IMG/VR virus record: IMGVR_UViG_3300047476_001619
Location: 1-26,028 of that record
Direction: 5' to 3' (one strand)
DNA length: 26,028 bases
From: a virus
Taxonomy: Duplodnaviria > Caudoviricetes
Shown here: piece after piece, positions 15,539 to 18,913 of the stretch
How positions within the stretch are numbered: position 1 is the first letter of the stretch
How the letters are laid out: every line of letters begins with the position of its first letter
Notes under the pieces: model-generated
Databases searched by the model: none
Seen by the model: the letters and a program-made list of their open reading frames with translations, nothing else
Told to the model about the DNA's origin: nothing
Position numbers and translations under genes: made by a program

Positions 15539-15819
15539 TCCAACTTAGCTCAGCGGAAGAGCAATCGGCTGTGAAAAGATAGCAGCTTATTAGAGTAATT
15601 TAATATAGAAAATTGTCGAAATTCAGTGAAAACTAAGTCGAAAGATATGTCAACACTGAGCCAAGCCTGAAAAGGAAGGTGCAGAGACTATAATGACGAC
15701 ATCCTACTAGGTAATGCTAAGGATGATGGTATAGTCCAGACTACAAACAGTTTATCTGGTAGTGAAAACTATAGTAGTAAGTAACCGATCGGTCGCTGGT
15801 TCGATCCCAGCAGTTGGAG
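15539..15819 (+). tRNA. trnN: tRNA-Asn(GUU), split by a group I intron (exons 15539-15572 and 15782-15819)
   Basis: Joined exons fold as acceptor TCCAACT/AGTTGGA, D arm GCTC/GAGC, anticodon stem ATCGG/CCGAT with loop CT-GT^T-AA, T arm GCTGG-TTCGATC-CCAGC, discriminator G. No encoded CCA. Confidence 0.93.
15573..15781 (+). ncRNA. Group I intron, 209 nt, ORF-less
   Basis: 5' exon ends in U. P1 ggctgt/gcagct has a U-G pair at the splice site. P AAATTCAGTGAAA, Q AACACTGAGC, R GTGCAGAGACTA, S GGTATAGTCC, terminal G. Confidence 0.92.
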
Positions 15820-16164: not shown

Positions 16165-16653
16165 ATGGATAAAACTAATTTAGAAAATTATATTTCACTT
16201 AATTATTCAACTCGCAAAATTGCACAACTAGAAAATAAAAGCCAAACAACAATTCGTCATTGGTTAAAGAAGTACGAACTCAAAACGAACTTAAACACTT
16301 TTGAACTTAACGAATATAAATGCAAGTGTGGCGAAACTAATCCAGAAAAATTTTATGGACACAAAAAATCAGTTTGTGCAGATTGTCATAACGAATATGT
16401 TTTAGGATCTGGAAAAAATAAAAAACAAAAGGCTAGACAGTATCTTGGTGGCTGCTGTAAAATTTGTGGTTTTGATAAGTATCCTTGCTCATTAGACATA
16501 CATCATTTAGATCCAACAGTCAAAGATAATAATTTCAAGTCTATGAGAGGCTGGTCTTGGGAAAGAATTTTACAAGAAATTGAAACTTGTGTTTTATTAT
16601 GCAAAAATTGTCACGCTGCAGTTCATTCTGGTTTAGTTGAAATACCAGAATAA
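16165..16653 (+). CDS. Free-standing HNH endonuclease with N-terminal HTH and zinc-binding motifs
   Basis: HTH-like STRKIAQLENKSQTTIRHWLKKY; CKC...CADC; CKICG...LDIHHLDP..K...CVLLCKNCHAAVH. Confidence 0.88.
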   Translation: MDKTNLENYISLNYSTRKIAQLENKSQTTIRHWLKKYELKTNLNTFELNEYKCKCGETNPEKFYGHKKSVCADCHNEYVLGSGKNKKQKARQYLGGCCKICGFDKYPCSLDIHHLDPTVKDNNFKSMRGWSWERILQEIETCVLLCKNCHAAVHSGLVEIPE

Positions 16654-18236: not shown

Positions 18237-18275
18237 CTTATTTGCATTATACCTGATGTGTGGTATGCTATCCTT

Positions 18276-18458
18276 ATGAAGCATACAATTACTATCATTG
18301 ACGAGAATTTTGAAGAGAAAAGTCTTGAAATGACTTATGCTCAATTGAAAGAACTTAATCGTTGGTTAAATATATATTTAAACACTGGCAAAACAATCGA
18401 ATATAAGAAAGAAAGAAATTCTAATAAAATTGTTGATGTAAAGCTTGCACAGATGTAA
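18276..18458 (+). CDS. Hypothetical protein (start revised to 18276)
   Basis: TTGCAT...TGGTATGCT, then 6 nt, then ATG; MKHTITIIDENFEEK. Confidence 0.6.
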   Translation: MKHTITIIDENFEEKSLEMTYAQLKELNRWLNIYLNTGKTIEYKKERNSNKIVDVKLAQM

Positions 18459-18511
18459 GTTGTGGTATAATTAGAGTGTAAGAGAAATACTTACAAATAA
18501 AAATTGAATAT

Positions 18512-18818
18512 GCCTCGTTAGCTCAGTGGAATTTAGAGCATCCGCCTTTTGAGGATCATATAATAATATGGTCATTTGGAGCCTTTGTAGAGAATAATAA
18601 TCTATAGAGTGGATGGTACTGTATCGGTGAAAGCTAAGTAGAAATATATGCTAATACCGAGGGAAGTTGAGAAGAAATTCTTTAACCCCGTAGAGACTAT
18701 ACGTACCACACCTGAAATGGTGAAGATATAGTCCAGACCACAAACATAGAAATATGGTAGTGAAAACTATAGTGGTAAGCTAAGCGGAGGGTCAGTGGTT
18801 CGAGCCCACTACGAGGTA
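18512..18818 (+). tRNA. trnR: tRNA-Arg(UCU), split by a group I intron (exons 18512-18548 and 18780-18818)
   Basis: Joined exons: acceptor GCCTCGT/ACGAGGT, D arm GCTC/GAGC with A20 (Arg identity element), anticodon stem TCCGC/GCGGA with loop CT-T^CT-AA, T arm AGTGG-TTCGAGC-CCACT. TGTGGTATAAT promoter upstream. Confidence 0.88.
18549..18779 (+). ncRNA. Group I intron, 231 nt, ORF-less
   Basis: P TATCGGTGAAA pairs with Q AATACCGAG; R CGTAGAGACTA; S AAGATATAGTCC; terminal G. 3' region nearly identical to the Asn intron. P1 pairing is less clear, so the 5' boundary is set by the 7-nt anticodon loop. Confidence 0.88.
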
Positions 18819-18823
18819 TCAAT

Positions 18824-18855
18824 AAAATCCCATCTGGTTAGGATGGGATTTATTT
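18824..18855 (+). terminator. Intrinsic terminator after tRNA-Arg
   Basis: aaatcccatc/gatgggattt; same stem as the 16959 terminator. Confidence 0.7.
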
Positions 18856-18913
18856 CTTAAACGCAAGTATTTCTAATTTATCAATAAGAATATTACTCTT
18901 GGAGGATATTCTT

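Follow-up and report, generated by a model that had tools for sequence, protein, structure and literature searches.

We conclude, with a probability of roughly 0.88, that a phage tRNA-Arg(UCU) gene is interrupted after U34, just ahead of C35, by a group I intron that is IC3-like and lacks an ORF, that this intron is likely self-splicing and yields a tRNA predicted to read AGA codons, and that it is probably a tolerated selfish element rather than a regulator of Arg supply. The gene resides on a freshwater virus record (IMGVR_UViG_3300047476_001619) of 26,028 bases with a GC content of ~32%, which was analyzed over its full length and is called the window hereafter. A relative that is syntenic with the window spans 358 kb, and so the phage represented by the window is probably large. 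Both exons, a complete P1-P9 core, a U at position -1 that is paired with a guide G, and an omega G are present in the sequence, and syntenic intron-less alleles exist in related phages. From known group I chemistry, the intron of the window would likely undergo guanosine-dependent self-splicing. The features of the locus are as follows.

18258..18458, + strand: small upstream ORF (60-66 aa, no Pfam match), which served only as a synteny marker
18461..18471, + strand: extended -10 promoter-like motif TGTGGTATAAT (putative function)
18512..18548, + strand: tRNA-Arg(UCU) 5' exon, with acceptor strand, D arm carrying A20, anticodon stem, and C32 U33 U34
18549..18779, + strand: group I intron, 231 nt, without an ORF, its last base being omega G (18779)
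18554..18573, + strand: 7-bp hairpin in the P1 loop (L1), 18554-18560/18567-18573, pair probabilities at least 0.98
18578..18581, + strand: internal guide GGAG, whose GAG pairs with exon CUU (P1, including U34.G) and whose G18578 would pair with C35 (P10)
18583..18609, + strand: P2 helix, 9 bp, with two-sided change in 7 of 9 pairs
18614..18734, + strand: catalytic core, comprising P3, P4-P6, P7, and P8
18614-18619/18703-18708, + strand: P3, with two-sided change in 5 of 6 pairs
18624-18688, + strand: P4-P6, part of the catalytic core
18693-18699/18729-18734, + strand: P7, which contains the G-binding G-C pair and shows no variation among the 13 aligned introns
18709-18722, + strand: P8, part of the catalytic core
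18737-18741/18772-18776, + strand: P9.0, within 18737..18776
within 18737..18776, + strand: P9 and P9.1 hairpins, with GAAA loops
18780..18818, + strand: tRNA-Arg(UCU) 3' exon, with C35 U36 A37 A38, a 5-nt variable loop, T arm, acceptor strand, and A73, but no CCA
18825..18851, + strand: intrinsic terminator-like hairpin of 11 pairs with a T-rich tail

The whole split gene occupies positions 18512-18818, and the intron sits at 34/35, inside the anticodon. A first-pass annotation of this DNA had proposed the same intron boundaries and had named a junction at another U, giving a loop of a length other than 7 nt, as one outcome that would overturn them. We tried 144 junction pairs, and when a U is required before the intron and a G at its end, only 18548/18780 produces a normal tRNA with a 7-nt loop. 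Excision of 18549-18779 gives the loop CU-UCU-AA. An alignment with intron-less alleles from related phages places the gap exactly between CTT and CTAA, and these alleles likewise read CU-UCU-AA; it is because of such empty-site alleles that the junction is fixed. The joined exons are called as tRNA-Arg(tct) by ARAGORN, and all four tRNA stems are fully paired. The identity set of tRNA-Arg consists of A20, C35, U36, A/G73, and a short variable loop. Each of these elements is present here, with A73 at the discriminator position and CCA not encoded, which bears out the earlier assignment of Arg(UCU) identity. ARAGORN reports three plain tRNA genes in the window (Glu, Gln, and Thr) and, when run without introns over the whole window, lists no tRNA at 18512-18818.

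The gene appears to have its own expression signals, which also agrees with the initial description. The window contains three copies of TGGTATAAT, where 0.33 would be expected, and every copy lies ahead of a tRNA gene; the extended -10 motif is conserved throughout the 19 syntenic phage loci. A sigma-70 scan of the window did not list the motif at 18461-18471. The terminator-like hairpin is found just downstream, at 18825-18851. Between promoter and tRNA (18477-18495) there is also a short leader hairpin, which by eye can be seen in all 5 intron alleles and in 1 of 14 intron-less alleles (L278 only), and which may have been co-converted with the intron.

Related introns were collected with two junction patterns. 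The 3'-junction pattern gave 83 viral loci, among them 33 complete split tRNA-Arg(UCU) genes, and 50 were set aside since two paired tRNA halves were not found. The 5'-junction pattern gave 82 loci, of which 66 have both halves and 16 were set aside; these represent 39 distinct introns, 25 of them in tRNA-Arg(UCU). U34 is present in 33 of 33 complete viral matches even though the script did not demand it, and omega G, which was not demanded either, ends 25 of 25 distinct Arg(UCU) introns from the 5'-pattern scan. Together with metagenome matches and one bacterial locus, the viral patterns provide 48 distinct Arg(UCU) introns, including that of the window. The same arrangement is carried by 6 of 401 genomes of one bacterial phylum (7 pattern matches, 6 of them real, with 2 matches for the reversed control). 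Another pattern, applied to genome contigs and requiring G at tRNA position 48, returned 16 loci with 1 real case (L095) and is uninformative on bacterial frequency. BLAST against the GenBank phage set returned 24 records with partial matches and none above 80% cover. Two individual loci may be mentioned here. According to ARAGORN, the unannotated 484-kb phage record LR756508 (L085) carries a split tRNA-Lys(UUU) and a split tRNA-Arg(UCU) close together (1362-1630 and 1761-2012), and L037 holds an internally deleted intron copy of 113 nt that probably cannot splice.

The classification of the intron as group I, already suggested on first inspection, is supported by an Rfam match, by a full P1-P9 core, and by covariation. 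When the 381-base stretch 18480-18860 is searched, RF00028 matches at 18563-18759 (49.8 bits, E 6.8e-12, model positions 1-253), a score that is 0.2 bits under the gathering score; an Rfam search of the whole window did not report the intron at 18549-18779. From P1 to P9.1, every helix can be drawn with standard pairs, and the P3-P7 pseudoknot, P4-P6, P8, and P9 are all found. Covariation, which we assessed by applying a hand-built structure to 13 short Arg(UCU) introns aligned with MAFFT, is seen in P2, P3, P6, P8, P9.0, and P9. In this alignment 88.6% of 832 cells are paired and 38 of 70 pairs exhibit two-sided change, values that count as support rather than as a probability because the structure came from one aligned row and six rows are close kin. 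None of 500 shuffles reached as high a value and slid controls were 34-40% paired, and it should be kept in mind that related sequences can outscore shuffles even without structure. Introns of the IC3 subgroup have a compact core with P2, a simple P5 that lacks P5abc, and a short P9 region. The anatomy of the Arg intron fits this description, and we regard it as an IC3-like, ORF-less group I intron. Its P5 resembles the 11-nucleotide tetraloop receptor.

The window carries a second intron-split gene at 15539-15819. This is a tRNA-Asn(GUU) gene with a 209-nt group I intron (RF00028, 77.3 bits) located after the fourth loop base (35/36). Its P9 is similar in sequence to that of the Arg intron (83% over 59 nt), and it is found again in the relatives L258 and L260. 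A free-standing ORF of 162 aa (16165-16653) lies directly 3' of the tRNA-Glu/Gln/Thr cluster; its HTH and HNH matches are weak (E 0.006-0.02) and below cut-offs.

The guide sequence was initially described as imperfect, with its alignment to the exon shifted by one base. In the correct register, exon CUU (18546-18548) pairs with GAG (18579-18581) through C-G, U-A, and U.G (U18548.G18579), which makes P1 a 3-bp helix without mismatch. This helix is invariant in 13 of 13 aligned introns and is present in the minimum-energy fold, and its pair probability is only ~0.5 in the whole-precursor ensemble. The base ahead of the guide lies opposite the base with which exon 2 begins, and it is G in all 48 distinct Arg(UCU) introns. 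In other introns this base is G in 5 of 5 Lys(UUU) cases (G.U), U in 2 of 2 Ile(UAU) cases, and C in one Thr(UGU) case.

Introns at 34/35 also occur outside tRNA-Arg, namely in tRNA-Ile(UAU) (L130, L152) and tRNA-Thr(UGU) (L123). Those of phage tRNA-Lys(UUU) genes (L122, L129, L133, L144, and L162, and L126, L139, L157, L175, and L177) seem to share one GGAG guide and yet to occupy either of two positions, 35/36 or 34/35. Six further loci called as Thr, with G before the guide, are better read as Lys introns at 35/36; as Thr, five of them would have no omega G, and one is ambiguous.

The first intron base, U18549, can also pair with G18578 (probability 0.43), and this offers a cut one base downstream. 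We consider it extremely unlikely that a large share of transcripts is cut late, after U18549, to give an 8-nt loop, or that the mature product is a different tRNA (Lys, or Ser-GCU via 33/34). In tRNA-Lys, five loci that share the GGAG guide do appear to splice at 35/36, but the first base of the 48 Arg(UCU) introns is T in 25, A in 13, C in 8, and G in 2, and thus the competing pair with U is not available in 23 of them; moreover, the empty alleles read CU-UCU-AA. ARAGORN, when introns are allowed, calls Lys here and Ser for the relative L019. The Lys call was rejected because it breaks the anticodon stem, and Ser(GCU) was rejected because its intron would end in A and the long variable arm is missing, so that stem pairing, omega G, and the empty alleles rule out both calls.

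Splicing after U34 thus remains our reading, and from known group I chemistry its steps can be sketched. Transcription would proceed from the extended -10 promoter to the terminator, and exon CUU, beside the anticodon stem, would pair with the guide GAG. P7 would bind a free guanosine, which would cut after U34, and omega G would then replace this guanosine at P7. The G before the guide would hold C35 as the exons are joined, and CCA would be added by the host.

The extra hairpin that had been noticed near the 5' end of the intron is well formed in the predicted ensemble and lies in L1. A long L1 of 28-30 bases is found in 8 of 48 introns, and a hairpin is predicted in all eight, although it is weak (-2.3 kcal/mol) in two. 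The hairpin is clade-specific and variable in sequence, and its fold is kept, with two-sided change in 3 of 7 pairs. L1 is only 55-83% identical to that of the window where the core is 96-99% identical. The hairpin likely does no more than compact the long L1 loop and thereby allow the short P1 to form.

Reads across the exon junction had been proposed as a check. No exon-exon joint is present in RNA runs X19, X20, X21, X23, and X24, for which contigs were searched, and contigs cannot show absence. In all four RNA runs compared with the window, cover falls on the intron only, with none on the exons, which is a weak hint. One contig from X19 (155 nt, depth 3.7) has omega G joined to a point near the 5' end of the intron. 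On L242, a locus with near-identical exons, this joint connects L242:902 to L242:696 with no letters between, which corresponds to intron base 22, just behind the L1 hairpin, and to a 207-base circle. The omega-G joint is absent from X2 (a DNA run), X20, and X24. The joint comes from one contig of one run and belongs to a relative, and the G after omega G could instead be the added guanosine of a short-L1 allele. We favor circularization of the freed intron, which likely proceeds by omega G attack near the 3' foot of the L1 hairpin and was seen once, in the RNA of a close allele rather than that of the window. The presence of this kind of joint in RNA from a lake is a hint that phage tRNA ribozymes of this type work under natural conditions.

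These data also bear on whether the intron, although real, has lost its splicing activity or can fold only with the help of a host protein, in which case the tRNA gene would be silent and the phage would use host tRNA-Arg. We judge this to be very unlikely. An intron of this kind would be compatible with the lack of a spliced junction in the five RNA runs, with an AT-rich sequence whose 3-bp P1 is formed only about half the time, and with a score just below the Rfam cut-off, but all core helices are intact, and the omega-G joint that a close allele shows, being of the circle type, argues against a dead ribozyme. The difference in identity between core and L1 across 7 alleles fits selection on the ribozyme, and recent spread would also give a similar core.

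The search for intron-less alleles that had been recommended was productive. The upstream ORF, used as a marker, led to 19 related phage loci. In every one of the 19, a tRNA-Arg(TCT) gene occupies the same place behind the same promoter motif, and 5 of these genes carry the intron and 14 do not (some are duplicates). Among the 14, nine have the same loop and five have another anticodon arm. No intron-less allele with the exons of the window was found among 53 uninterrupted tRNAs with the exact anticodon stem, 3 of which have the Arg(UCU) loop and 0 this body. The same slot, behind the same promoter, holds at least six unrelated tRNA-Arg(TCT) bodies across the 19 loci (L262-L280, about 2225-2310), and five of the loci have the loop UU-UCU-AC. 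The tRNA-Arg gene at this slot is swapped as a cassette.

AGA accounts for 178 of 241 Arg codons (74%) in 25 ORFs of the window, and the earlier remark that this codon is frequent is therefore correct. It had been speculated on this basis that splicing might matter for translation; most of the syntenic relatives simply lack the intron. A related proposal is that the intron is kept because it benefits the phage. It might, for instance, gate AGA decoding, or it might protect the anticodon loop against host anticodon nucleases for as long as the transcript is unspliced. The codon usage would be in keeping with such a role, and the variety of tRNA-Arg bodies at one locus suggests some pressure. 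Nevertheless, we consider a benefit unlikely, since 14 of 19 syntenic loci do without the intron, the mature tRNA would be as exposed as an intron-less one, and homing by a neighboring endonuclease accounts for the patchy spread without any benefit.

As a tolerated selfish element, the intron most likely spreads by endonuclease-driven homing, with an enzyme that would be supplied from outside the intron. The 231-nt intron has no ORF of at least 60 aa and hence no internal homing endonuclease ORF, while 11 of 48 relatives are at least 600 nt long and five ORFs tested from these match HNH_3, HNH_2, or PDDEXK_5. An HNH-type ORF begins ~20 bases into the intron, inside P2, in L017, L020, L049, L054, and L072, and is on the opposite strand in L066 and L074. 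In addition, a free-standing PDDEXK_5 gene is located directly behind tRNA-Arg in three loci with the intron (L262, L240, and L242) and in one intron-less locus with a differing anticodon arm (L280).

L262:2635-3252; L280:2382-3002; L240 and L242, each from 1019: PDDEXK_5 gene with a C-terminal HTH-like part, >90% identical between loci

No copy of this PD-(D/E)XK gene is present in the window. In L266 and L267 the corresponding place is taken by another ORF, which is cysteine-rich and lies on the opposite strand.

Across the 7 alleles with a core identity of 96-99%, the exons are 64.5-100% identical. Because the intron cores of the window and L262 are 99% identical and their exons only 64.5%, either the intron or the exons must have been exchanged recently. 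We rank homing driven by an enzyme encoded elsewhere than in the intron as its likeliest cause, above ordinary recombination, and the free-standing PD-(D/E)XK endonuclease may move the ORF-less Arg intron.

Perhaps the locus is a live homing battleground. The PD-(D/E)XK enzyme would cut the intron-less CU-UCU-AA arm and carry the ORF-less ribozyme between unrelated tRNA-Arg bodies, and phages would evade cleavage if they acquired the intron or if they replaced the tRNA by one whose anticodon arm differs, of which L280 would be an example. In the same scenario, the fast-changing L1 hairpin would set the circularization site in nature. This joint reading is tentative, and we would not expect it to hold in full. 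Natural intron-plus (L265) and intron-minus (L278) alleles with near-identical exons exist, with and without the adjoining endonuclease gene, and with such allele pairs the homing of a tRNA intron that lacks an ORF can be tested directly.

Group I introns in phage tRNAs are thinly covered in the searchable literature. Our literature search, whose coverage excludes most subscription journals and so does not prove absence, found no paper devoted to them, and the main text of PMC7162821 has no occurrence of the word "intron". Nothing in the relevant passages of PMC12619734 connects that work with the phage of the window. A 2014 review states in the relevant passage that all phage introns seen were in protein-coding genes (PMC3984707), and this statement, as far as it concerns phage group I introns, no longer holds. 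Furthermore, such genes are invisible or miscalled in standard annotation, and thus the tRNA counts of large phages are too low.

The initial description, which knew of no described Arg(UCU) group I intron, can be supplemented here. Putative group I introns in tRNA-Arg-TCT are reported for Ca. Maribeggiatoa BOGUAY and Ca. Thiomargarita nelsonii (PMC4853749, citing MacGregor et al. 2013, PubMed 24012537). These share with the present case the isoacceptor, the putative intron class, and the fact that annotation overlooked them, but they reside on a bacterial chromosome rather than in a phage; the likeness is one of description, as the passage in PMC4853749 gives no insertion position. An Arg(UCU) group I intron is thus not new as a kind, having already been reported in bacteria, and it recurs in dozens of uncultured phages.

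A catalog of such positions is that of Williams 2020 (bioRxiv 10.1101/2020.01.27.920355), which raised the number of bacterial tRNA intron settings from 4 to 21, assigned the four classical types to subgroup IC3, and surveyed bacterial and archaeal assemblies without ever mentioning phage. Its running text names only Leu.3Ug, Arg.5Ug, fMet.2Ug, Ile2.5Ug, and Leu.3Cg. The position occupied here is the one it names "3Ug": the insertion follows the third loop base, and removal restores a 7-nt loop and a normal tRNA. The cyanobacterial tRNA-Leu(UAA) intron (Leu.3Ug) has this same position after CUU, a U at -1, an omega G, and a length of ~200-240 nt, whereas the host tRNA here is Arg(UCU) and exon 2 begins with C. 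The tRNA-Arg(CCU) class (Arg.5Ug in Williams 2020) is likewise a group I intron in the anticodon loop of an Arg tRNA. Microcoleus phage OR578706 (L084), a deposited record, has a comparable split tRNA-Arg(cct), annotated as a 286-nt tRNA-Arg, but in both the anticodon is CCU and the intron is located after base 36.

The tRNA-Ile intron of Azoarcus (Ile2.5Ug in Williams 2020) resides in another tRNA and at another loop position. According to the portion of PMC13168695 concerned with it, this compact anticodon-loop intron is self-splicing, and attack by its omega G generates 5'-truncated circles. The X19 joint suggests the same kind of product, except that the circularization site in Azoarcus is only a few bases from the 5' end and the X19 joint lies 21 bases in, behind the L1 hairpin. 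Finally, Lak megaphages contain "enigmatic" tRNA introns, and the passage describing them says that phage tRNA introns had not been reported before (PMC6784885). By that description they resemble the present case as introns in tRNA genes of large phages, and differ from it in that they are not classed as group I and interrupt tRNAs for Tyr and Thr. Set beside these systems, the single intron described here is ordinary, and its locus is a good test locus rather than a new system.
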